This document shows positions 10,577-60,825 of a DNA stretch of 64,000 nt, one piece after another. How positions within the stretch are numbered: position 1 is the first letter of the stretch; each line of letters starts with the position of its first letter. This DNA comes from Chloroflexota bacterium (GTDB lineage: Bacteria > Chloroflexota > UBA6077 > FW602-bin22 > JACPRP01), in assembly GCA_023480885.1 (NCBI GenBank), contig JAMCWX010000072.1, positions 10,628 through 74,627 of the forward strand, in the 5' to 3' direction. Below the pieces are notes generated by a model that saw nothing but the letters and a program-made list of their open reading frames with translations, was not told where the DNA came from and made no database searches. Position numbers and translations under genes: made by a program.

Positions 10577-11437
10577 CTACGACTTAAGGTGCAATGATTT
10601 CCACGGAATCAGAATGCGTTCGAGTTCGTCCAAAACCAGGGATGAGATATACCCGAGCACAGAGATAATGATCAATCCAACGTACATGGCCTCGACAGAG
10701 AATGTCTGCCAGGACTGCCAGATCAGATAGCCAATCCCTGATTTGGCGCCGACGAACTCCGCGGCCACTATAAGGAGCAGAGCCACGCCCCAGCCCAGAC
10801 GCAAGCCCGCGAAGATGAGTGGCAGGGCTCCTGGAAAGGCAATGGTCAGATACATATCCTTACGGCTGGCGCCGAAGTTCTTGCCCACGTCGAGATAGAT
10901 TTGCTCGATATTCATCACACCTGCCATCGTGTTGATTAGCACCAGGAAGAACACGCCGATGGCCACGATTACGTACTTCGACATTTCGCCCAGGCCAAAA
11001 ATGAGCATGATCAGAGGCAGAATGGCTATCTTCGGAATCGGATACGTGGCTGCGATCATCGGGTTGATGGCTGCGCGGATTATTGGCGATAGACCCATTA
11101 TGAGTCCAAGGATCAATGCCGGTGTCGATCCCAGGGCGAATCCCCAAAGTATTCGCACGATGCTTGCGCTCAGATGATTCCATAGCTCACCAGAGGCGAC
11201 CAGGGAGCCGAATGTACTGACAATGCCGGTGGGTGGTGGGAAGAATCGTGCGTCGAGCAAGCTTGTTCGAACCAGAACTTCCCAGAGCACTAGAAGGAGT
11301 AGTGGCGAGAAGATCGACAACAAACGTTCGGCAACATCTCCCCTGATGTGGACGCGTTGCTGCTTGGGCGCGCCCAGTGAGATTTCTCCTGGGTGGACTG
11401 CCACAACGTCGCCCTCGGCCAAACCCTGCATACTCAT
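10577..11437 (-). CDS. NitT/TauT-family ABC transporter permease
   Basis: FFPPP, PIPKIAILPL, FPGALPLIFAGLR, VAAEF...GIGYLI; start overlaps the ATPase stop (ATGA). Confidence 0.92.
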   Translation of the reverse strand: MSMQGLAEGDVVAVHPGEISLGAPKQQRVHIRGDVAERLLSIFSPLLLLVLWEVLVRTSLLDARFFPPPTGIVSTFGSLVASGELWNHLSASIVRILWGFALGSTPALILGLIMGLSPIIRAAINPMIAATYPIPKIAILPLIMLIFGLGEMSKYVIVAIGVFFLVLINTMAGVMNIEQIYLDVGKNFGASRKDMYLTIAFPGALPLIFAGLRLGWGVALLLIVAAEFVGAKSGIGYLIWQSWQTFSVEAMYVGLIIISVLGYISSLVLDELERILIPWKSLHLKS

Positions 11438-12294
11438 TCTGTCCCCTCCTCTCTCTTGGCCTTCAGAACTTCGTCTCGCAAAAGGTCCCATATCTTATAA
11501 GCTAACTCGCCGTACTTAGGTTGTGCTCTGAGTTCGTACACCTTTCTCGGACGTGGAAAATCGACTCTAACGTCAGCCTTTACCCTACCGGGGTGGGCTG
11601 TCATAACGATTACACGATCTCCGAGAACGATCGCTTCGTCGATACTATGGGTGATGAAGATAACTGTCTTGCGCGTTTCTTCCCAAATGCGCAGGAGTTC
11701 TTCCTGCAGCAGGACCTTGTTCTGCTCGTCCAGAGCCGCAAATGGCTCGTCCATCAAGAGAACCTCTGGGTCGTTGGCGAAAGCCCTTGCCACGCTCACC
11801 CTTTGCTTCATCCCGCCTGATAACTGATGCGGATATGCTTTGGCGAACTTCAGCAATCCGATCTTTCTGACGTAAAAATCTACCTTTTCTGCGCTCTCTT
11901 TCCTGTCGACGCCTCGCATTCGCAACCCATAGGCGATGTTGTCCTGAACTGTCATCCACGGGAATACCGACTGCTCCTGGAAAATCATGGAGTTCATCGG
12001 CTTGCTCTTGTCTCTCTGTGTCATAATGATATTGCCCTCGCTGGCTGTCTCAAGTCCGGCGAGGATACGCAGCAGAGTTGTCTTGCCGCAGCCGCTGGGG
12101 CCCACTATGCAGAGGAACTCGCCATCGGGGATGGTTATGTTCACATTGTCCAGCGCGGTCACCTTGCCGTGGCCGACATCGAAAATCTTGTACAGCCCTT
12201 CGATACGAACCTTTGCTGGTGCCCTGGTCACAGCCGTTGCTTTGGTGCCTTCGCTCGTTTTTCCGTTGGCCTGGGTCATTTTCGCTTGCTTCAC
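11434..12294 (-). CDS. NitT/TauT-family ABC transporter ATP-binding protein
   Basis: GPSGCGKT, LSGGMKQR, LLMDEPF, THSIDEA, FPRPR. Confidence 0.93.
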   Translation of the reverse strand: MKQAKMTQANGKTSEGTKATAVTRAPAKVRIEGLYKIFDVGHGKVTALDNVNITIPDGEFLCIVGPSGCGKTTLLRILAGLETASEGNIIMTQRDKSKPMNSMIFQEQSVFPWMTVQDNIAYGLRMRGVDRKESAEKVDFYVRKIGLLKFAKAYPHQLSGGMKQRVSVARAFANDPEVLLMDEPFAALDEQNKVLLQEELLRIWEETRKTVIFITHSIDEAIVLGDRVIVMTAHPGRVKADVRVDFPRPRKVYELRAQPKYGELAYKIWDLLRDEVLKAKREEGTE

Positions 12295-12872: not shown

Positions 12873-13409
12873 ATGCCCATTTATGAATTCGAAGGCAAGA
12901 GGCCAGCTATCGGCGCGAGGTCGTTCGTCCATCCCGAAGCCGTGATGATAGGGGATGTTGTGATTGGCGAGGGGTGTTATATCGCCGCCGGCGCCGTTCT
13001 CAGAGGCGATTGGTGCCGAATCCGAGTCGGCAATCGCTGCAACATTCAGGATAACTGCGTTATCCACGCAGCTCCCGACAGGGAGGCAGTGCTCGGCGAC
13101 AATTGCCACATCGGCCATGGCGCTATAGTCCACGAAGCTTTGCTAGGAAACCACGTTCTTGTAGGAATGGGTGCTGTCGTCCAGGACGGAGCCCGCGTGG
13201 GCGATGACGCAATCGTCGGCGCTGGCTGTGTCATACTTGTCGGCAAGGAGATTCCACCTAGAAAAGTGGTCGTCGGCGTGCCAGGCGAAGTCGTCGGGGA
13301 TGTGAGCGAAGAACGGGCGAAAGCCTCCTGGGCGGGCACCCAACTGTACCAGGCATTACCGTCCCGCTACCAGAAGGCTTTCCGAGAGATTAAGCCTGAT
13401 GAGCTTTAG
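12873..13409 (+). CDS. Gamma-class carbonic anhydrase family protein (CaiE/PaaY/YrdA-like)
   Basis: Hexapeptide repeats, LRGD, NIQDNCVIH, IGHGAIVH (three metal-binding His). Confidence 0.9.
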   Translation: MPIYEFEGKRPAIGARSFVHPEAVMIGDVVIGEGCYIAAGAVLRGDWCRIRVGNRCNIQDNCVIHAAPDREAVLGDNCHIGHGAIVHEALLGNHVLVGMGAVVQDGARVGDDAIVGAGCVILVGKEIPPRKVVVGVPGEVVGDVSEERAKASWAGTQLYQALPSRYQKAFREIKPDEL

Positions 13410-13561
13410 AACCAGCGGTCATCAATCTCTTTGGCGTCTGCCACTTTGAAGGATTGCTGGCAGAACGGGCAAATCAACTCGACGTCGGTGAAGCGAAGAC
13501 CGTAGTCAGCGTAGAATCTGCCGCTGCAGTCAGGGCATTTGACCCAAAAGATCCTTTCCAA
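13406..13561 (-). CDS. Small 51-aa zinc-ribbon protein, absent from the ORF track
   Basis: TTG start after AAGGAG; MERIFWVKCPDCSGRFYADYGLRFTDVELICPFCQQSFKVADAKEIDDRWF; two CxxC; 30 bp downstream of UbiD on the same strand. Confidence 0.8.
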   Translation of the reverse strand: MERIFWVKCPDCSGRFYADYGLRFTDVELICPFCQQSFKVADAKEIDDRWF

Positions 13562-13591: not shown

Positions 13592-14986
13592 CTAGCTGAG
13601 CCATTCTTCCAGCTTAATTCTCGCCATCGCCTCTTCGGGCACCCTCAGGCGCTCGGGGAACGCAATGTCCAGCGGACGCGTGGCGTCGATGATCACTTTC
13701 CCGTGTCCCATCGCCGTTGTAAAGAAGTTGTGAGCATTGTCTATGAAATCGACATCGCGTCTCGGGTTTGTCGAGGTGAGCACAGCCCAGACGACATCGC
13801 CCTCGTTGAAAACGTCGATATCGTCGTCGACGACTATGACCCACTGGAGAAGCTTGGTGTGCGTTAGGGCTTCCATCGCAACCATCTTCGCTTGTCCTTC
13901 ATGCTGCTTCTTGATCGAGATGTAACAGGCGAAGCGACCGCAACCTGAGTGAGGCAAATGCACCGCCTTGACGTTTCCAAACTTCGTCTCTATGGCGTTG
14001 TAGATGCTTCCCTCTTTGGGAATGCCGCCGAGATTCCAATGCCCCTGGTGGCCCGAGAAGATATCTTGCATCTTTGCCTTCTGGCGATACGTCATCGCCG
14101 TGACGTTCATTATGGGTCTGAGACACTGGGCCTGATAATGGCGGGTGACCTCGCCAAAGGGATTCAAGATCTCGCGCACTCCAGGGGGAATCTCTCCTTC
14201 GATGATGATCTCGGCGTCGGCAGGCACCAGAAAGTCCCTGCCCCACGTTTCCGAAGGTGTTAAGCGCAGGGGCTCGCCCATAAAGGAACTAAGGGCCGCG
14301 TAATCATCCGTACCCCACGGAGCTAGGCTGAGAGAGCCGAGATAGAACGCGGGGTGATGGCCAAGTATATTGATGATGGGAGCGGGCTGCCCGCGCTTCT
14401 CGTACTTGGCCAGCATGCGCTCGAGATGCGGCGAGTGTATGGCTACGCCTAGCTTGCGAGCCTCCTTGTATGGCGTCTTGACGAAAGAAATGTCGTAGGC
14501 ACCCGTGTCGGGATCCTTCATGGCGCATACCATCGTCATCACCGGTTCGAGATCCATTTCAAAATGGCGAACTATAGGCAGCTTGCGCACGTCGACTCGA
14601 TCTCCGACATCGACCACTTCCTTGACGGGCGCGTTTTCCCTGGCAATAGTAATGGTCCCCGCCTTGCCCTCTATTGCCAGACGTTCTTTTTTCGCGAACT
14701 CAAGGCTCAGCGGCATCTTATACTGATCGCGCGGGAAGTCGAGGATAGTCGCGCAGCGCTCTCGGGTGCCGAAAACGTTAGAAACGATAGAGAACTGCGA
14801 CTTGTCGCCGAGCAGATTCTCGGCGGAGTCGAAGACTACCAGAGGGTATCGGTTCGCCTGAGTTAGATGTTCGAGAATAGCGGTCACATCATAATTCGAA
14901 GGTTTGACCGTGCGATTCACTTCCACTACGTCATCGGGAAAGGACTCCTTGAGCCTGTTGATGAAGCTGCTAAGATCCTTGGCCAT
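13592..14986 (-). CDS. UbiD-family prFMN-dependent (de)carboxylase with atypical catalytic residues
   Basis: KDPDTG, VPADAEIIIEG, PFGE, VVDDDID, IIDATRP. Confidence 0.9.
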   Translation of the reverse strand: MAKDLSSFINRLKESFPDDVVEVNRTVKPSNYDVTAILEHLTQANRYPLVVFDSAENLLGDKSQFSIVSNVFGTRERCATILDFPRDQYKMPLSLEFAKKERLAIEGKAGTITIARENAPVKEVVDVGDRVDVRKLPIVRHFEMDLEPVMTMVCAMKDPDTGAYDISFVKTPYKEARKLGVAIHSPHLERMLAKYEKRGQPAPIINILGHHPAFYLGSLSLAPWGTDDYAALSSFMGEPLRLTPSETWGRDFLVPADAEIIIEGEIPPGVREILNPFGEVTRHYQAQCLRPIMNVTAMTYRQKAKMQDIFSGHQGHWNLGGIPKEGSIYNAIETKFGNVKAVHLPHSGCGRFACYISIKKQHEGQAKMVAMEALTHTKLLQWVIVVDDDIDVFNEGDVVWAVLTSTNPRRDVDFIDNAHNFFTTAMGHGKVIIDATRPLDIAFPERLRVPEEAMARIKLEEWLS

Positions 14987-15139
14987 TTCCGAGCGTTCTA
15001 CCTCCTTAATGCCGAGATACGATGAAGCTTAACCGGAGCGGCCTGAAGATGGGGTTATAATCGAAGATCGTGAATGCAGTATAAGCTTAGGGCAGAGCCG
15101 CTGTCAATGGCCGAGTGATGACGTAAGGGAAACGACACT

Positions 15140-18049: not shown

Positions 18050-19189
18050 GTGAAAACAAGAAAAGCCGTCCTGGCGAAACCAGCAAAATTCGTCTTCAAA
18101 CCGGGTGCAGCCACGCTTCGGAAGGACGATTTGCCAGTTATGATCGAAAGATTGACCGCTGAGTACGATGTAGTTGCACCCGTTGTGAGAGATTTCTCAA
18201 TTGCTCTGGAGAAAATCAAGTCCGCGAACGAGTTGGCCAGAGGATATCGAGACGTCCAGTCGCCAGGGCGGTACGTCCTGGAGAAGACTGACGAGCCGAT
18301 GATCTTCACGTACGCCAATGGCCAGGAATCGCCGAAGAAGTTTATTCATCCCTCTCGACTGCTCATGTTCAAAGGCGCCAGGAAGGATGGCTTGTTCGAC
18401 GTAATCGAGGAAGATGAGCCGGAAAGAAAGCTCGCCTTTTTCGGCATACGTCCCTGCGACCGGCAATCGATCCTGGTGCTGGATCGGACGTACATCACGG
18501 ACCATCCTGACCCTTACTATCTGAGGCGGAGAGGAGACGCGTTTGTTGCCGTCGTCAACTGTACACGACCAGGAGCCACGTGCTTTTGTGCGTCGATGGG
18601 CACCGGACCCAAAGCAGATCGCGGCTTTGACATCGCGCTGACGGAGCTGGCGGACGCGTTTTTGATCGAGCCTGGCAGCCCGAAGGGAATGGCGATGATG
18701 AGCAAGTTGCCAACAAAGCCAGCTACCCAGGCTGAACTGAGTCAGGCAGGATTCTGGATCGAAGACGCCTTGCTTCATATGGGCCGGACATTGAATACGA
18801 CTGACCTGCCACAGATTCTGCTGCGCGAGCTGGACCATCCGCACTGGGACATCATGAAGGATTGGTGTGTGGGATGCACCAACTGCACGATTGTTTGCCC
18901 CACGTGCTTCTGCTATACGATTGCCGACAAGGTAGACCTTAGCCTGCAGTCGTTCAAACGCGAGCGTTACTGGGATTCGTGTTTCTCCTGGCAATTCACC
19001 GAGGTTCACGGCTGCAACTTCCGCGAGAACCTCAGGCAGCGCTATCGCCACTGGGTATGCCACAAGCTCAGTTACTGGGTTGAACAGTACGGAGTCTTTG
19101 GCTGTGTCGGCTGTGGGCGCTGCATCACCTGGTGCCCAGTGGGAATCGACATCGTCGACGTCGCTACCACCGTTCGGGGAGGTGTCTAA
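18050..19189 (+). CDS. hydB: Group 3b [NiFe]-hydrogenase (sulfhydrogenase) beta subunit, 4Fe-4S
   Basis: [40 protein letters not shown]. Confidence 0.88.
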
Positions 19190-20022
19190 TGGCAAACCCT
19201 CTAATGCCCTTGCCTGCGCAAATCATCGACGTTGAGACAGAAGGAAAAGACACACTGACCTACACTCTCGCTTTCAAAGACAAGGAAGTTCAGAGGCAAT
19301 ACCGTTACAAGGCTGGCCAGTTCAACATGGTTGGCTTTTGGGGCGAGGGGGAAGCGCCTATCTCGATGAGCTCGGACCCGGCGGAACACGGTTACTTCCA
19401 ACACACCGTGAAGGTGCTGGGGAACATAACTAGATCGATGGGCCGTCTGAAGGAGGGCGACATCATAGGCGTGCGCGGCCCGTACGGAACTTGCTGGCCT
19501 TTGGAGGAAGCCGCCGCAAGAGACATCTTGATCGTAGCTGGCGGCATAGGCTTTGCCCCACTGCGACCTGTCATCGAACACATAATTGGCAATCCTAGCG
19601 TCTACGGCAAGTTGACCGTGCTTTTCGGTGCAAAGACGCCGCAGGACATCCTGTTCACGCGAGACTTTGATCGGTGGCGGTCGAGGCCTAACGTCGAGCT
19701 CGTGCTGACAGTCGACCGGGTTGACGGGCAGAAATGGGAACACAACATAGGCGTGGTACCAACCTTGTTCGAAAAAATCAAGCTGGATGCCAAGAACACT
19801 GTCGCTATGCTTTGCGGCCCCGAGATAATGCTGCGCTTTTGTCTCGTCGATCTGATCAAGCGCGGCTTTCCGATGAATCAGTTGTTCATTTCGATGGAAA
19901 GGCGGATGAGCTGTGGCACGGCACAATGCGGCCACTGCTTCTTTGGACCAAAGTTCGTCTGCCGTGACGGGCCAGTGTTTCGGTTCGCCGAAGTCTACGA
20001 CTTGATGGGAAAGGGGGTATGA
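19189..20022 (+). CDS. hydG: Sulfhydrogenase gamma subunit, FAD/NAD(P)-binding with 2Fe-2S
   Basis: GQFNM, RGPYG, AGGIGFAPLR, CGPEIM, MSCGTAQCGHC...VCRDGPVF. Confidence 0.9.
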   Translation: MANPLMPLPAQIIDVETEGKDTLTYTLAFKDKEVQRQYRYKAGQFNMVGFWGEGEAPISMSSDPAEHGYFQHTVKVLGNITRSMGRLKEGDIIGVRGPYGTCWPLEEAAARDILIVAGGIGFAPLRPVIEHIIGNPSVYGKLTVLFGAKTPQDILFTRDFDRWRSRPNVELVLTVDRVDGQKWEHNIGVVPTLFEKIKLDAKNTVAMLCGPEIMLRFCLVDLIKRGFPMNQLFISMERRMSCGTAQCGHCFFGPKFVCRDGPVFRFAEVYDLMGKGV

Positions 20023-20026
20023 ACTG

Positions 20027-20809
20027 ATGTCAGCCAAACCTAAGCTTGCGGTATGGAAATTCTCCTCCTGCGACGGCTGCCAGTTGTCGATTCTCGACTG
20101 TGAGGAAGAGCTGCTCGACCTGGTTGGCTCGTACGAGGTTTCGTACTTCCTCGAGGCCAGGAGGGGTTTCGACCCCGGCCCGTATGATGTTTCACTGGTC
20201 GAGGGATCGGTGAGCACGCCCGAGGAAGTCGAACGGATCAAGATGGTTCGCCAGCAGACGAAGTACCTCATTCCTTTCGGCGTCTGCGCCACGTGGGGAG
20301 GCATCCAGGCGCTGCGCAATTGGTCCGATGCGGAGAAGATGAAAGCGATGGTCTATCCCAAAGCTGAGCACGTGAAGGCGCTGCCTACCTCGACTCCCAT
20401 CTGGGCTCACGTCCCGATTGAATATGAGCTTCAGGGCTGTCCTCCCAATCGCCACCAGTTGGTCGACCTCTTGGGGAAGTTACTGTTGGGGCAGCAGCCG
20501 CGTTTGCCGACGAACAGCGTGTGTCTCGAATGCAAGCGCAAGGGGAATATATGCGTGCTCGTTGCCCAGAACATGCCCTGCATGGGACCAGTTACGCACG
20601 ACGGCTGTGGCGCCCTTTGTCCCACGTATAACACTGGATGCTACGGTTGCTTTGGCCCGATGGACGACCCGAAGCCTGAGCGATTTGCCAGGGAACTAGA
20701 AGTGCGGGGGATGCGCGGGCCAGACATAGTCAGGGAGTTTAAGCGCATTACCAGCTATGCTGATGGCTACAGGAAGGGAGCAGAGCTTTATGAGCGAGCG
20801 GCGCATTAA
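20027..20809 (+). CDS. hydD: Sulfhydrogenase delta (small) subunit
   Basis: KFSSCDGCQL, EGSV, GVCATWGG, GCPP, SVCLECK...CMGPVT..GCGALCP...CYGCFGP. Confidence 0.9.
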   Translation: MSAKPKLAVWKFSSCDGCQLSILDCEEELLDLVGSYEVSYFLEARRGFDPGPYDVSLVEGSVSTPEEVERIKMVRQQTKYLIPFGVCATWGGIQALRNWSDAEKMKAMVYPKAEHVKALPTSTPIWAHVPIEYELQGCPPNRHQLVDLLGKLLLGQQPRLPTNSVCLECKRKGNICVLVAQNMPCMGPVTHDGCGALCPTYNTGCYGCFGPMDDPKPERFARELEVRGMRGPDIVREFKRITSYADGYRKGAELYERAAH

Positions 20810-22091
20810 GATTGATTACCTGGCCAGAGTGGAGGGAGAGGGCGCTCTAGACATCAAGGTATCGGACGGCAAAGTCGAGGATGTCAAGCTGGCCATCTTC
20901 GAGCCGCCGCGATTGTTCGAAGCGTTTCTGGTCGACAGATCCTATGACGAGTTGCCCGACCTGACCGCGCGCATCTGCGGCATATGCCCGGTCGCGTACC
21001 AGATGAGCGCGGTGCACGCCGCGGAAAAGGCATTTGGCGTAAAAGTTGGGGGTTCAGTGCGGCAATTGCGCCGGCTGTTCTACTGTGGTGAGTGGATTGA
21101 AAGCCATACGCTGCACATCTATATGCTGGCGGCTCCGGACTTCCTGGGCTACGACAGCATCATCTCGATGGCCAAGGACTTCCCCGAAGAAGTGAAGCGC
21201 GGCTTGCGGCTGAAGCGAGTCGGCAACGAAATCGTCGCCACGCTTGGAGGCAGAGAGATTCATCCCATTTCGGCGTGCGTCGGCGGGTTTCATAAGACAC
21301 CTTCGCAGGAGGCTCTCGCTCCATTAGCTGAGAAACTGAGACAGGCCAAGCAGGACGCCTGGGACACCGTTCTATGGGCGGGTTCGTTGGATGCCCCTGA
21401 TTTCACTCGCGACATCGAGTTTGTCGCGCTGTCGCACCCTGACGAATATCCTATGAACGAGGGTCGGCTAGTGTCGAGCCGGGGCTTGAACGTTGAGCAG
21501 GAGGAGTTCGAGCAATACTTCCAGGAATACCAGGTGCCGCATTCCAATTCGCTGCAGTCGGTAGCTTTGGGCAACCGCGCTTACTTTGTCGGTCCGTTGG
21601 CCAGGGTGAATCTTAACTTCGACCGGCTATCGCCAGTGGCCCAGGACGCTGCGCATAGGAGCGGGGTTAAGTTCCCTAACAAGAATCCCTTCGCGAGCAT
21701 CGTCGGCAGGGCAATCGAGGTTCTGCACTGCGTGGACGAGGCGCTGTCCATTATCGAGTCCTACAAGCCTCCCAAGAAATCCATAGCTGATTTCAAGCTC
21801 CGAGCGGGCATTGGCGCAGCCATCACCGAGGCGCCCAGAGGCATTCTTTATCATCGCTACCGATTCGACGATCAAGGATTGATCCGTGAGGCCAAGATCG
21901 TGCCCCCAACCGCGCAGAACCAGCGCCAGATCGAGGAGGATTTGCGGGAGTTCGTGCCCACGCTCTTGCACCTCCCGCAAGACGAGATGACGCGCCGGTG
22001 CGAGTGGGAGGTGCGCAACTACGATCCCTGCATTTCGTGCTCGACGCACACGCTCAAAGTGAGAATAAATAGGGATGGAGAGGCGAGGTAA
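20790..22091 (+). CDS. hydA: Group 3b [NiFe]-hydrogenase large (alpha) subunit
   Basis: ARVEGEG, L1 motif RICGICPVAY, EAPRG, L2 motif DPCISCSTH followed by a C-terminal extension. Confidence 0.93.
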   Translation: MSERRIKIDYLARVEGEGALDIKVSDGKVEDVKLAIFEPPRLFEAFLVDRSYDELPDLTARICGICPVAYQMSAVHAAEKAFGVKVGGSVRQLRRLFYCGEWIESHTLHIYMLAAPDFLGYDSIISMAKDFPEEVKRGLRLKRVGNEIVATLGGREIHPISACVGGFHKTPSQEALAPLAEKLRQAKQDAWDTVLWAGSLDAPDFTRDIEFVALSHPDEYPMNEGRLVSSRGLNVEQEEFEQYFQEYQVPHSNSLQSVALGNRAYFVGPLARVNLNFDRLSPVAQDAAHRSGVKFPNKNPFASIVGRAIEVLHCVDEALSIIESYKPPKKSIADFKLRAGIGAAITEAPRGILYHRYRFDDQGLIREAKIVPPTAQNQRQIEEDLREFVPTLLHLPQDEMTRRCEWEVRNYDPCISCSTHTLKVRINRDGEAR

Positions 22092-22220: not shown

Positions 22221-23522
22221 CTAGGGCTCATTTATTTTGCACCAACGCAAGTCAACCTTAGATTCAGCAAACGTCGGCACAAACTCGGCTCTCGAGTTCA
22301 CGATGCGGTTCCCGAGACGTGAATAACAGCCCGCCCATTTCTCGCTTGCGACGTAGCCCCCCACTGTGGCCAGCCGCATCCTCTGCACCGGGCGTCCCTG
22401 CCAGTCCCATCCGACTGAGGTGAGCGGTGCGGTCTCCACAAACTGTTGGACGATGAAAGTGCCCCATTTCCTGCACTGCTCCCAATCGGCATCAGACATA
22501 GCGTCGCCGAAGTATACCTCGTCGCCTTCGCGGCCGAACACCTGCTTCACGACCGTCTTGTTGAGATCGACGTCTCCTGGCAAATCCCGAACCCACCAGG
22601 TCGGTGGCAAGTGCCGCTTGATGGCCTCTTGCTCTTCAGGCGAGAACAACGGCTCGTCTCGCCGTGCCCAAATCCAGGCGAGCAGACCTTTGTTTTGGAG
22701 AAGCATTCCGCGTAGCCCGTTCAAGAGCGTCAATCGTCCAGAGGTGACGGCTTCAACTATCGTATAGAACTGTGGCAGCGCCAGCATCGCCTCGTAAGTA
22801 ACGTAGCGGTAGAGAGCGTCGATGGGTTGCCCGACAAGCGATACCCTTCCGCCACGAGATTCACGAAGGTTGTCGATGTCTCCCAAAACGGTTTCGACGC
22901 CATCGGCAGCCAATGTGGTGCGAATAAGCCGCTCGGTGTAAGCCATGTGGCCAGTGTCTTCCTTGTCAGAGGCATCGGTGAGCAGTCCGAGGCGGACCGG
23001 GCGCCTGTCGGACTGCAAAGCGGCGCCGATAGCGGCTAGCCTCCGTGCTGCTAGATCGCCGTTGACGCGTGCCCCCTTGAAGTAGGGCCGAAGCAGTTCA
23101 AACGCCACCTCGTCAACCGCCGTCGCTTCACGAAAGCCCGCGGGTGTATCGCAATTGTACTCTAAGAGCTGCCAGCGGCTTGAGCTATCGAGCAGAAAAT
23201 CGAAACGCCCGAAGACGACTGGCCTTGGTGGTTCCTGGTGCAGTAGCTCGGCGAAGCTCCACGGAAAGCCGAAAGCCAGCAGCGTGTCCACATCTTCCGC
23301 GACGTGCTGGCCGGCGATGGCGAAGACGCGGGCCAGACGGGTTGAAAGCTCTGCCAGTGAGGCCAGCTCGGATTGGCTGAGAATCAACGCGTTCAAGCTC
23401 AGATAAGGCCCGTCGCTGCTCACTGTTGTGCCAGCCATACAGCCGCGGAAAAGGGCGCGACGAAAGAAGCGTCGGTACAAAGAAGGCGATATCTCGTTCG
23501 GCCGGTCAAACAGCACTTTCAT
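22221..23522 (-). CDS. Glutathionylspermidine-synthase-like ATP-grasp ligase (YgiC/YjfC-like)
   Basis: GRFDFL, LLEYNCDTP, QNKGLLAWIW, VKQVFGREG, IVQQF; ATG at 23522 avoids overlap with the upstream gene. Confidence 0.88.
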   Translation of the reverse strand: MKVLFDRPNEISPSLYRRFFRRALFRGCMAGTTVSSDGPYLSLNALILSQSELASLAELSTRLARVFAIAGQHVAEDVDTLLAFGFPWSFAELLHQEPPRPVVFGRFDFLLDSSSRWQLLEYNCDTPAGFREATAVDEVAFELLRPYFKGARVNGDLAARRLAAIGAALQSDRRPVRLGLLTDASDKEDTGHMAYTERLIRTTLAADGVETVLGDIDNLRESRGGRVSLVGQPIDALYRYVTYEAMLALPQFYTIVEAVTSGRLTLLNGLRGMLLQNKGLLAWIWARRDEPLFSPEEQEAIKRHLPPTWWVRDLPGDVDLNKTVVKQVFGREGDEVYFGDAMSDADWEQCRKWGTFIVQQFVETAPLTSVGWDWQGRPVQRMRLATVGGYVASEKWAGCYSRLGNRIVNSRAEFVPTFAESKVDLRWCKINEP

Positions 23523-23542
23523 TAAGCGATCCCACTGTCCCC

Positions 23543-24169
23543 CTATATCGGCGGCACCCACACGCGTGTAACTGCCAACCCTGCTCGCGATAGCTCTCCT
23601 GTGATGTACTCCACGTCTTCTGGCGCATGATGGTAGTGAGCCGCGACACCTACCGCTTCGACTCCCCATTCCAGCAGCATCCTGGCCGATGGCAAATCAT
23701 CCGTCGAATACACATAACGATTGTCGAACTTGTGCTCGACGGCGTCGGGGTGTGGCAAAGTCTGCCGCTCGGCGTCGAGCAGGAACACTATGCCGCGAGG
23801 CTCGGCTGGCGGGCGGAGTTCGGCGGATAACCAGATGAGTTGGGCCAGAAGAGAGTCAACTGGCAGAGCAGGCCGCTCCGTTGGCCAACGAGACATAACT
23901 GGGACCACCAGCCAGCGTTCCTCGTGGAATGCTAGCGTAGTAGCCAGTCCCAGGTCCGGTGGAAGGTCGAGCAACAAAGCGACCCTGCCTCGCGCCGAAT
24001 CGAAGAACGGCAGGATCGATCGCTCGATGGCTGTTCTTGCTGCGTCGAGTGGCAGGGGAGCGCGGTGGCGTGAGGTGTGCACGAGGAAGGGCATCGCGGC
24101 TACGTATTGCCAGAATGGACCGGCGGCCCTCGTCCAGGCGAGGTACGCCCTCAACTCAGCGCGGGACAT
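23543..24169 (-). CDS. Hypothetical alpha/beta protein
   Basis: 208-aa ORF inside the operon; LLDLP, FLLDAER, FDNRY...DDLPS. Confidence 0.75.
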   Translation of the reverse strand: MSRAELRAYLAWTRAAGPFWQYVAAMPFLVHTSRHRAPLPLDAARTAIERSILPFFDSARGRVALLLDLPPDLGLATTLAFHEERWLVVPVMSRWPTERPALPVDSLLAQLIWLSAELRPPAEPRGIVFLLDAERQTLPHPDAVEHKFDNRYVYSTDDLPSARMLLEWGVEAVGVAAHYHHAPEDVEYITGELSRAGLAVTRVWVPPI

Positions 24170-24368
24170 CGGATCGGGAATCCAACTGGTCTAGTTGCTT
24201 CTCGCTTTCGGTCAAGATCGACCAGAGCTCGCGTCGTTCCACGTCTCGCATGTGGGGCAGCAGAGTCAACCAGCGCTTCTTCAGCACTGGATCGAGAAAC
24301 CGAGTCTTGCGAACAGCCTCGGCGATGGTCTTGGTATCCAGTTGGTCTCGGTTTGCTCCTTGTGACAT
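24156..24368 (-). CDS. Small helical hypothetical protein (70 aa)
   Basis: Fills the operon gap, overlaps the next gene by 14 bp, amphipathic composition. Confidence 0.65.
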   Translation of the reverse strand: MSQGANRDQLDTKTIAEAVRKTRFLDPVLKKRWLTLLPHMRDVERRELWSILTESEKQLDQLDSRSDVPR

Positions 24369-24400
24369 GGCAACGCCTTCACGCGGTCAATTATATCCGA

Positions 24401-25486
24401 TTACGACGAGCTTTTGCTCGAGCTTCCACCCTTCCCTGATGAGAACCCACTCGAACTCGGGGCTTTGACCCCAGACGATCCGCCTGACTTGCCGGTTGCT
24501 GCCGAGCCAGACCCTGTGCCACTGCTCATTCCAGAGGTAGCGCGGCCCGATTTGCCAGACACCGCGGATCCTGAGCCGGTGCCGCGATTCATCCCCGAAA
24601 CGGCGCTGATAGTCCGCTCGCCGAAGGGCTTCGGCGAGTCCGAGGGCACGCTCCCGCGTAAGGGCTGGTTTGCGGCGATGTCTGATCCGCTCGGCGGATC
24701 GCGAAAGGCAGGACGAGAGGCCGTGGGGTCGGTCCTGGGCGCGGAGTTAGTCCAGATTACCATCGGGTACCATGGCGAGTGATAATAGCCGAAGTACCCC
24801 GGATAATAGCTGTGGTAGACGTAGCGGTTGCTGGAGTCTGGCGTTGGCGTGGGCGTTCCTGTGCCCGACGTTTGGCCCGATGTAGTCTGCTCGCCAGGCC
24901 AGACGAGCGAGACTGGAACGTCAGGAGGCAGCGCCAGCACCGGCTCGCCTTTATCCGTGATCGAAAGCTCGGTTTGATCGCCTGTAGCCTGAACGAGTCG
25001 CAGCCCTGTGACTGAGGCCGTTTGGTAATTATTGCTTTGCGGATCGAACCAGTCGAAGGAGTAAATGCCCCGGTGGTCGCGGGTGACGCTTTCTGGCTTG
25101 ACCTTATACTTCTGTGAGCTGTCCTTGGGCAGCCCCTCGGATATCTCTGCCGTTAGCTCAGGGGTTTGGTCGACCACGATTTGGTCGCCGTCCGGCGGAG
25201 ATGAGTCGGTTTGGCTATCGACGTCGTCGCAGGCCACCGTAAAGAGCGCCAGCATTCCGACGACGACCAACGATGCGACCAGGCGTATCTGTTGGGCGGC
25301 CTTATGTCTCAAGGAGTTTCCGACGCGGTTGCTGAGGTCGTGAAGCCTGCTGAGCGCGTTTTTGGCAAGGGCTCGATGGGCAGGACTCTTCTGGACGATA
25401 TCCTTGATAAAGGCTAATGACCGGTTGCGCCGGGAGGCGGCACGCCGTGAAGCCTGCCTTGCTCGCTGTCTCTTCCCGTTACCCAT
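24401..25486 (-). CDS. Putative lipoprotein with a Gly/Ser/Lys-rich repeated tail (DUF1190/YgiB-like architecture)
   Basis: GGAGG RBS, long basic N-region, hydrophobic stretch, lipobox-like TVA-C, Tyr-rich segment, tail SSSGFSSGKGG. Confidence 0.78.
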   Translation of the reverse strand: MGNGKRQRARQASRRAASRRNRSLAFIKDIVQKSPAHRALAKNALSRLHDLSNRVGNSLRHKAAQQIRLVASLVVVGMLALFTVACDDVDSQTDSSPPDGDQIVVDQTPELTAEISEGLPKDSSQKYKVKPESVTRDHRGIYSFDWFDPQSNNYQTASVTGLRLVQATGDQTELSITDKGEPVLALPPDVPVSLVWPGEQTTSGQTSGTGTPTPTPDSSNRYVYHSYYPGYFGYYHSPWYPMVIWTNSAPRTDPTASRPAFRDPPSGSDIAANQPLRGSVPSDSPKPFGERTISAVSGMNRGTGSGSAVSGKSGRATSGMSSGTGSGSAATGKSGGSSGVKAPSSSGFSSGKGGSSSKSSS

Positions 25487-25636
25487 CTTTGTCCTCCGCA
25501 ACAGCCTGCGATTGCCGCTCGGTAAGTCGCCGGTGGCGCCAGGAGCGCCGCGCTTGGACCATAGTATAGCTTATTTCGTGCCTGGATGCTAGAGGGTTGG
25601 GCGCTTAGAGTTACCCAAGACGCGGCATCTGCATCC

Positions 25637-59415: not shown

Positions 59416-60825
59416 CTAACCCGCGTACCCTGTTCCGAAGTACTTCGCCCAGTTGCTCTTCACTACTCTTACCATCTCGTCAGAGAGCTTCACTTCCTCT
59501 TCGTAGCTGTCCCACTCGTAGGGCCTCGTGGCGTCGATGATCACGCGCGATGTGAAGCCTTTTCGTTGTGGTTCGACGGACGGGTCCAGCGGCGAGCCAG
59601 TGCCGATCTCCAGAATTTCTGTGCCACGCTTTGGCTGATATCTGGTTCCCACAGCCCACCAGACGGCATCCATATCCGATGGATCGATGTCGTCATCTAC
59701 CACGATAACAATCTTATTCGCGTAGTTGCCGGACGGAGTGCTGTAGACCGCGCGCCCTACCTGCATCGCGTGGCCGGGATATCGTTGCTTGACTGATACG
59801 ACAGTGACGAAGTAGTTCGCGGCGGCTTCTGGGCAGTACACTCCAACCACGCCGGGCATCTGCATTCGTTTCAGTTCCATCCAGATCGCCGCAGAGCGGT
59901 TTACCGTCTGGATAGCATGGATGTCGGTGATTGGGCGGCCTACAGTGCAACCCCAAAGAATGGGATTATCCCTGTATGTGATGCACTTGATGTTGATGAA
60001 TGGCTTGGGCGTGGGATAGCCATAGTAGCCTGTGTACTCGCCGAATGGTCCCTCCATTCGGCGCTCGCCCGGTGGAATTTCGCCCTCGATGACCATTTCG
60101 GCGTGCGCCGGCACTGGCAGTTCGCACGTCTCGGCCTTTACCACCTCCGTGGGCACGCCATTCAACGCGCCAATGTAGTCATACTCATTTTCGAAGGGAG
60201 GTGTTGGAGTCGTGGAGACGACGAAAGTCGTCGGATCTACGCCGATTGCTATGGCAATCGGCATAGGCTCATTCATCGCCTCGTATCTCTGATAATGAAG
60301 GGCTATGTGCTTGCTTGGTATCACGTAAATGCCCAGCGTCCGCTCCTCGTGGCAAAGGACGCGATACGTGCCGATGTTGACCCAGCCGCTGTCGGGGTCC
60401 TTAGTAATGATACATCCATTAGTAATGTAGCGCCCCCCATCCATTGGGTACCAGTGTGGTATGGGAAACTTGAAGATGCTTACTTTCTCGCCCTTATCGA
60501 TATTCTCCTTGCAGGGACCGGAGGAGACCACTTTGGGAGGAATTCTGTTGTTGATTCGTTCCTGCCAGGTCGAGATAATATCCATAAGGGAGTTTGCGCC
60601 AGGCACGTTCATCGCGATGCCGAATCGTCTGGGCGTCGTGAGAGCGCCGGTCAGAACTGGGGTGTTATACCCCTTGACGTTCTCGAAGAGCAAGGCTGGG
60701 CCGCGCTTCTGCTCGCTGAGCTTAGCTACACATCCAAGTTCCTTGTTCCAATCCACCTCTGCGGTGACGCGTTTGAGTTCCCCTTGCTCGTCCAAGGCGG
60801 AAATGAATTCTCTGAGATCGCGCAC
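59416..60825 (-). CDS. UbiD-family (de)carboxylase, phenylphosphate carboxylase beta-like
   Basis: DLREFI, GPALLFEN, NIGTYR, PAHAEMVIEG, EGPFGEYTGYY, LDPS, IIDAT. Confidence 0.9.
   Translation of the reverse strand: MRDLREFISALDEQGELKRVTAEVDWNKELGCVAKLSEQKRGPALLFENVKGYNTPVLTGALTTPRRFGIAMNVPGANSLMDIISTWQERINNRIPPKVVSSGPCKENIDKGEKVSIFKFPIPHWYPMDGGRYITNGCIITKDPDSGWVNIGTYRVLCHEERTLGIYVIPSKHIALHYQRYEAMNEPMPIAIAIGVDPTTFVVSTTPTPPFENEYDYIGALNGVPTEVVKAETCELPVPAHAEMVIEGEIPPGERRMEGPFGEYTGYYGYPTPKPFINIKCITYRDNPILWGCTVGRPITDIHAIQTVNRSAAIWMELKRMQMPGVVGVYCPEAAANYFVTVVSVKQRYPGHAMQVGRAVYSTPSGNYANKIVIVVDDDIDPSDMDAVWWAVGTRYQPKRGTEILEIGTGSPLDPSVEPQRKGFTSRVIIDATRPYEWDSYEEEVKLSDEMVRVVKSNWAKYFGTGYAG

Follow-up and report, generated by a model that had tools for sequence, protein, structure and literature searches.

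The lysine-type UbiD gene and its surroundings

The window, meaning the whole 64-kb stretch of DNA that was analyzed, carries on its minus strand an open reading frame at 13592-14986 whose translation is an intact 464-residue protein of the UbiD family (P0001). The AlphaFold2 model of this protein (mean pLDDT 94.5) aligns with solved UbiDs across the entire chain (Z 37-49), with HmfF as the best fold match. Pfam families PF20695, PF01977 and PF20696 are all listed for its 99% identical twin (P0002), and a search of the ESM Atlas returned UbiD clusters only. The TIGR00148 score was 223.9, under the cut-off of 244.85, and no curated UbiD cut-off was reached. By fold and by descent, the protein is a UbiD. 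Nearest named homologues are from Chloroflexota, and the 15 pattern matches in viral contigs included no relative.

The active site departs from the motif RXnEX4(E/D), which is called highly conserved in the accessible text of PMC5818171 and PMC10176493: the Arg and the first Glu are missing from P0001 and its clade, and the acid-base Glu/Asp is present. Lys170 (14477-14479, minus strand) takes the position of Fdc1 Arg173, HmfF Arg152 and ShVdcC Arg168, and we refer to the protein and its relatives as Lys-type. The usual EGPFGE is replaced by Leu274-Asn275-Pro-Phe-Gly-Glu279 (14150-14167, minus strand), in which the first Glu is gone (Leu274, 14165-14167), the Gly has become Asn (Asn275, 14162-14164) and the acid-base Glu is retained (Glu279, 14150-14152). 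A phmmer alignment to HmfF (6h6v, residues counted on the printed chain) is gap-free over query residues 153 to about 248 and about 251 to 418; it places Lys170 on Arg152 and Leu274, Asn275 and Glu279 on Glu254, Gly255 and Glu259. In the clade profile alignment, Lys170 falls on ShVdcC Arg168, which the available part of PMC8379154 equates with Fdc1 Arg173. Judged from these alignments, the register at Lys170 and at 274-279 is unambiguous.

The original prediction had described an Arg-to-Lys change at about 14477, an Asn-to-Asp change and LNPFGE for EGPFGE, read against a second UbiD in the window (59416-60825) that has the canonical Arg and EGPFGE. The codons and the gap-free alignment bear out all three, the Asp being Asp165 (14492-14494, minus strand) with HmfF Asn147 as its counterpart. 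Its statement that HmfF has Leu at the first Glu is not supported by the solved Pelotomaculum thermopropionicum HmfF, which has Glu there in the alignment and in the accessible text of PMC8988006.

Upstream of the UbiD gene (15000-15107, minus strand) lie a sigma-70-like promoter, TTGACA-18-TATACT, that matches the consensus at 11 of 12 positions, and a ribosome-binding site, AAGGAGGT. Promoter-like sites numbered five against 1.9 ± 1.4 in shuffled sequence, a count based on consensus matching only. A 51-residue zinc-ribbon protein of the CxxC...CPxC type is encoded on the same strand at 13406-13561, beginning 30 bases past the UbiD stop with a TTG start and AAGGAG at 13575-13570; this gene is absent from the supplied list of open reading frames. 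Its model (pLDDT 90.3) gave only generic zinc-ribbon fold matches, the best with Z 5.5, and VdcD was recovered neither by sequence nor among the listed fold matches, though the two may still be kin. We consider the protein a likely small subunit of the Lys-type UbiD.

Farther downstream, an ABC ATPase and permease of the sulfonate/nitrate type (10577-12294, minus strand) are 58-70% identical to the ABC genes adjoining Lys-type UbiD genes at two other loci (L008, L017). The pair is possibly the importer of the UbiD unit; no binding-protein gene lies beside it. The pair is separated from the UbiD and zinc-ribbon genes by a convergent gene resembling gamma-carbonic anhydrase and PaaY (12873-13409, plus strand), and the stop codons of this gene and the zinc-ribbon gene overlap. 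Neither this gene nor a glycerophosphodiesterase neighbor has a match at the other loci among 86; we count neither as belonging to the UbiD unit, and the carbonic-anhydrase-like gene is probably a local insertion. The Lys-type gene has no catabolic neighbor and no adjacent UbiX in the 64-kb window; the sole UbiX of the host genome is at C71:17585-18184.

Several other genes in the window and the host are worth recording. The second UbiD (59416-60825, minus strand) has a canonical triad, lies 44 kb away and is 25% identical to the Lys-type gene; its best NCBIfam match is phenylphosphate carboxylase beta (410.7 vs. a cut-off of 468.95). Four genes at 18050-22091 (plus strand), judged from their translations, look like an operon for a NiFe hydrogenase of the sulfhydrogenase type (group 3b). 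They are followed at 22221-25501 (minus strand) by a glutathionylspermidine-synthase-like gene, an unknown gene and a long membrane protein with a Gly/Ser tail; a gene of the Pfam GSP_synth family is also found near the Lys-type UbiD at one other locus (L001). The host genome (G000) contains about ten UbiD genes, 14 matches to molybdo-hydroxylase large subunits, 13 to the aldehyde-ferredoxin-oxidoreductase family and one UbiX, a predicted repertoire that is that of an aromatic-acid specialist.

Conservation, descent and gene context of the Lys-type clade

The original prediction had proposed a phylogeny and a residue census of the clade, and both were carried out. The census used two sets: 121 homologues, comprising the best 120 of 2099 plus the query and including its 99% twin, and 80 GTDB loci, the best of 406 confirmed loci, of which the other 326 may include Arg-type relatives. 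The scan patterns used to gather the GTDB loci do not contain the trait positions. Lys was found at position 170 in 121/121 homologues and 80/80 loci, encoded in the latter by AAG (56) and AAA (24). Position 274 is variable and never acidic: the residues seen were V95/A15/C6/L5 in the homologues and V44, Q16, A11, C8 and L1 at the loci, with acids in 0/121 and 0/80. Position 275 is Asp or Asn in all 121 homologues (D108/N13) and in 79 of the 80 loci (D54/N25/Q1; L036 and L029 are examples with Asp), and the acid-base position 279 is E119/D2 and E64/D16, respectively. The query's exact combination of K/L/N/E occurs in 5 of the 121 homologues, and ten phyla are named in the titles of 78 of the 80 loci (labels as deposited). 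The Lys/Leu/Glu triad originally described captured a real and clade-wide swap and was incomplete: its Leu stands at a variable, non-acidic position, and the conserved gain of Asp/Asn at 275 was missed.

Background rates were taken from related UbiDs. Among the best 150 cluster representatives, 127 had Arg or Lys at 170 together with residues at 274-275, the other 23 being fragments or carrying another residue. These 127 comprised 111 with Arg and an acid at 274, 8 with Arg and no acid, 7 with Lys plus Asp or Asn at 275, and a single Lys fragment whose sequence diverges past residue 269. Asp/Asn at 275 was seen in no Arg-type member, and an acid at 274 in no Lys-type member. A further background of 60 UbiD domains was drawn from two genomes (51 of the 62 matches in G076 and 9 of the 12 in G079), and 3 that did not align were dropped. 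Fifty-five of the remaining 57 were canonical, 2 showed other losses and none had Lys. Two matches in G076, L155 (C124:3454-4056) and L160 (C9:2109-2645), have the Arg replaced differently, by Ser and Asn in the alignment, together with altered Glu motifs. In the host genome of the query, the 8 other aligned UbiDs were all canonical, having the Arg and an acid in place of the first Glu or that Glu itself; three further partial matches were left out of that alignment.

Lys-type proteins form one clade nested in canonical HmfF-like proteins, with 34/34 tips together among 148 rows (FastTree support 1.0). When the 16 trait columns were removed, 22/22 Lys-type tips still grouped among 61 rows (SH-aLRT 96.7, fast IQ-TREE search). 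Because all of the trait changes trace to this one branch, their co-occurrence reflects a single event and is no proof of coupling. Asn at 275 is found on the deepest branches of the clade, where supports are low, so Asp at this position probably arose later, after Asn. The dN/dS ratio was 0.04-0.19 in 13/13 pairs tried and 0.10 between the query and its nearest locus, L019; by this measure the clade is under purifying selection. Contigs from 4/4 sequencing runs (3 studies) span both sites, and no letter differed at the trait codons.

Elsewhere in the active site, Asp165, His187 and Asp228 (14303-14494, minus strand), at positions that are canonically Asn, His and Glu, are predicted ligands of what we take to be the metal that holds the prFMN phosphate. 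Across the 80 loci, these positions are D41/N32/E7, H64/D16 and D65/E15, changed from the canonical set and, as far as residue identity tells, metal-capable in every case. His316, Lys324 and Arg351 (13934-14041, minus strand) are basic substrate-pocket residues common to HmfF, aligning with His296, Arg304 and Arg331 of its printed chain; the two arginines presumably serve the pocket there. The accessible text of PMC7976604 reports that H297 sets the furan specificity of HmfF, and His296 of the printed chain is taken to be this residue with a one-residue offset. The loci have His316 in 77/80, Lys or Arg at 324 in 78/80 and Arg351 in 75/80. Since the same residues are common in Arg-type relatives too (74, 59 and 45 of 116), they are inherited, and His316 is not diagnostic for HmfF. 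The closing Leu (ShVdcC L425) is Phe422 in the query. We also considered Arg282 as a compensating Arg within the chain and rejected it, as HmfF has Arg at the same position and many clade members have Gly.

Using a profile made from 36 of these small genes, we searched the 80 loci for the partner and found zinc-ribbon homologues in 59, directly downstream of the UbiD gene in 57. An adjacent zinc-ribbon gene is absent at 21 of the 80: all 16 basal loci with K/Q/N/E, four others and one truncated locus. Canonical Arg/Glu/Glu sister enzymes (L096, L101, L102) also adjoin partners of this kind, and a canonical Arg/Glu/Glu paralogue on a related branch in the host (G000:C7:38872-40477) has a small zinc-ribbon gene after it as well. 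The partner therefore predates the Lys swap.

Neighbors were counted by six-frame HMM searches, as a codon-scored gene caller missed some genes and read seven of the UbiD loci in antisense. Only 35 of the 80 loci reach 15 kb, and kinship among the loci means that the following counts are not independent: UbiX within the fetched flank at 18, TAXI-type binding proteins at 18, TctC at 13, molybdo-hydroxylase large subunits at 17, aldehyde dehydrogenase at 23 and NicX-like dioxygenase (E 7e-66 against 7cn3) at 5. Two clusters (L036, L040) combine the NicX-like gene with a decarboxylative-hydroxylase-type flavin monooxygenase, amidases, UbiD, the small gene and UbiX, and another locus (L029) has UbiX, TAXI-TRAP, a phthalate-dioxygenase-like Rieske gene and a zinc dehydrogenase. 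Neighbors of Lys-type genes thus point to hydroxypyridine- or phthalate-type acids; for the copy in the window, no neighbor names one. No single substrate is indicated across the clade, because neighbors differ between subclades and NicX occurs at only 5/80 loci. The actinomycete clusters (L036, L040, L037, L042, L046), which join NicX-like genes and UbiX to the Lys-type UbiD, several with flavin monooxygenase or amidases, are by gene content a candidate for an undescribed pyridine-carboxylate pathway. A UbiD-type pyridine-dicarboxylate pathway is reportedly present in Agrobacterium and might involve the Lys-type or another clade.

Pairing with UbiX is exclusive in some genomes. Ten genomes were picked because UbiX lay near the Lys-type gene, and in 6 of them (genome completeness not stated), two being cultured isolates, that gene was the only PF01977 match. 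All 5 of these sole-UbiD genomes that were retested had a single UbiX, located in the cluster of the Lys-type gene. In Mycolicibacterium vaccae NBRC 14118, the Lys-type gene is the sole UbiD and lies beside UbiX and a NicX-like gene. Five further genomes, chosen otherwise, had 4-62 UbiD matches each, and among these hosts the Binatia-like G076 (L069), G077 (L075) and G078 (L072) show an extreme expansion: their genomes are smaller than 5 Mb and have 62, 43 and 41 matches to the UbiD domain. At the level of the locus, a second full-length UbiD was absent in 75/80 cases and present in 5/80.

Proposed reaction and alternative readings

We propose that the Lys-type UbiD is an active prFMN-dependent decarboxylase of (hetero)aromatic acids that uses a Lys/(Asp,Asn)/Glu network, and we give this reading a probability of roughly 0.7. 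What is observed is the fold, the residues and their conservation throughout the clade, and the gene context; the chemical steps, geometry and partner binding described here are our interpretation. The UbiX at C71:17585-18184 would supply prFMNH2, whose phosphate would be held by the metal on Asp165, His187 and Asp228. Lys170 would act in place of the Arg: it would bind the departing carboxylate or CO2 and depress the pKa of Glu279. Asn275 (Asp in most members) would stand in for the lost Glu by positioning Lys170. A ring carbon of the substrate would add to C1' of prFMN, CO2 would leave and Glu279 would protonate the adduct. His316, Lys324 and Arg351 would bind another group of the substrate, polar or anionic, which would make a hydroxylated pyridine or benzene dicarboxylate the most likely class, an assignment that we hold tentatively and at rather less than even odds. 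The zinc ribbon may steady the catalytic loops in the way that VdcD braces those of VdcC. Taken together, the enzyme probably works with the adjoining zinc-ribbon protein on an imported (hetero)aromatic acid.

Several observations count against this reading: Arg-to-Lys inactivates Fdc1, Asn275 is neutral here and in 25/80 loci, the closing Leu is Phe422, neighbors differ between subclades, the window has neither a catabolic neighbor nor an adjacent UbiX, and 21/80 loci have no zinc-ribbon gene beside the UbiD. According to the accessible text of PMC5818171, Fdc1 R173K and yeast R175K gave no detectable decarboxylation, and R173K gave no H/D exchange. The same text reports that R173K retains the mature prFMN mass and that yeast E280Q has a kcat of 0.09 vs. 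10.5 per s (about 1%). Based on this mature mass and residual turnover, neither Arg-to-Lys nor loss of the Glu need block cofactor maturation, a point in favor of an active enzyme.

A different outcome, which we judge unlikely, is that the enzyme runs another prFMN reaction or a route new to UbiD, with a leaving group other than CO2 or with decarboxylation beside a pyridine nitrogen, such that Lys/(Asp,Asn)/Glu is a proton relay and not a carboxylate clamp. In the accessible part of that work, it is precisely the bidentate Arg that Fdc1 cannot do without, and many further positions are near-invariant and clade-specific (M152, Y164, F168, H184, Q285). NicX-like and molybdo-hydroxylase neighbors suggest N-heterocycles, and the one-to-one pairing with UbiX implies that prFMN is used. 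However, the clade retains its acid-base Glu/Asp and a pocket like that of HmfF, and the neighbors are compatible with ordinary ring decarboxylation and give no positive sign of another leaving group. The broader suggestion in the original prediction, that the clade serves a new substrate class or chemistry, is plausible because the rewired triad is real and clade-wide.

That prediction had also raised a non-catalytic subunit, and a related thought is that the protein carries prFMN for a canonical UbiD. Such a role would suit the R173K variant of Fdc1, which holds the mature cofactor and is inactive (PMC5818171, accessible text), as well as the 8 Arg-type UbiDs with an acidic first position in the host genome, the second UbiD at 5/80 loci and the basal-subclade hosts with 41-62 UbiD matches. 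It fits poorly with the 6 of 10 genomes, two of them cultured isolates, in which the Lys-type protein is the sole UbiD, with an acid-base residue retained in every member examined (Glu/Asp at 80/80 loci) and with the importers and catabolic genes that accompany the gene. Where the only UbiD is kept beside the only UbiX, as in five genomes, there is no canonical enzyme for it to assist, and the simplest account is that it uses prFMN on its own behalf. The UbiD-UbiX pairing therefore argues against a non-catalytic subunit, which we regard as improbable.

It is more doubtful still that Arg23 of the zinc-ribbon partner acts in trans for the missing Arg. Across 32 aligned partners this residue is conserved in at least 90%, and it is lacking in the partner of the canonical C7 paralogue, yet the same Arg is found in partners of the canonical enzymes in L096, L101 and L102, and all 16 basal K/Q/N/E loci are without an adjacent partner. 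The arginines of VdcD, moreover, form surface salt bridges, and VdcD itself has no direct part in catalysis, in the available text of PMC8379154. Decay or sequencing error in a single copy, which the original prediction had allowed for, found no point in its favor and can be dismissed, given the same codons in independent assemblies, an invariant Lys across ten named phyla and a dN/dS of 0.10 against L019.

A large natural clade with a fixed Arg-to-Lys change means that the Arg-Glu-Glu/Asp motif is not universal in the UbiD family. It offers a direct test of whether the Arg acts in substrate binding, pKa tuning or cofactor maturation, and the Lys-type is readily testable in those cultured strains that have one UbiD-UbiX pair only. 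If the substrates proposed here are right, these enzymes would be new biocatalysts for pyridine and benzene dicarboxylates, either fixing or releasing CO2, and would fill gaps in the catabolic pathways of these acids. If the chemistry is a new one for UbiD, the clade would represent an unrecognized entry step to the breakdown of pyridine- and phthalate-type acids in ten phyla, in aerobes and anaerobes. We found no natural Lys-type UbiD in the accessible portions of the open full-text literature (including PMC5818171, PMC8988006, PMC8379154, PMC7976604, PMC8252502, PMC10865409, PMC10176493 and PMC6644310) and no activity data for any clade member in the literature searched.

Comparison with characterized UbiD systems

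HmfF, the 2,5-furandicarboxylate decarboxylase of P. thermopropionicum (PDB 6H6V/6H6X), is the closest characterized system both in sequence (E 1e-57) and in fold (TM 0.86-0.88, Z 49, rmsd 2.2 over 426 residues, 31-32% identity). Its acid-base Glu, its pocket of the His/Arg/Arg type and the predicted metal site all map onto P0001. It differs in having Arg/Glu/Gly/Glu (152, 254, 255 and 259) where P0001 has Lys/Leu/Asn/Glu, Asn147 and Glu210 where P0001 has Asp165 and Asp228, and a closing Leu in place of Phe. The accessible text of PMC8988006 counts PtHmfF among the structures with an E(D)-R-E triad. Identity is far too low for the HmfF substrate to be transferred. The indole-3-carboxylate decarboxylase AnInD and the protocatechuate decarboxylase AroY belong to the same HmfF cluster in that text and match the model with Z 45 and 43; unlike P0001 (22-25% identity), they keep the Arg.

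VdcCD (ShdCD/BsdCD; vanillate and 4-hydroxybenzoate; PDB 7AE4/7AE5/7AE7) resembles the present locus in pairing a UbiD with a small zinc ribbon of two CxxC motifs. The small subunit is required there and braces the ERE loops, according to the available text of PMC8379154. VdcC itself has a canonical triad and about 25% identity, and P0001 scores 195.4 on the VdcC equivalog NF041204, against a cut-off of 650.

Fdc1 of Aspergillus niger and yeast has the same fold (Z about 39), and its engineered R173K and R175K variants make the very change that the clade carries naturally. The combination of Lys, a lost Glu and Asp/Asn is not among the six Fdc1 variants, E277Q and E280Q included, in the accessible text of PMC5818171. 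The engineered Lys variants are inactive in that text, whereas the natural clade differs from them in also lacking the first Glu and in having Asp or Asn at the next position.
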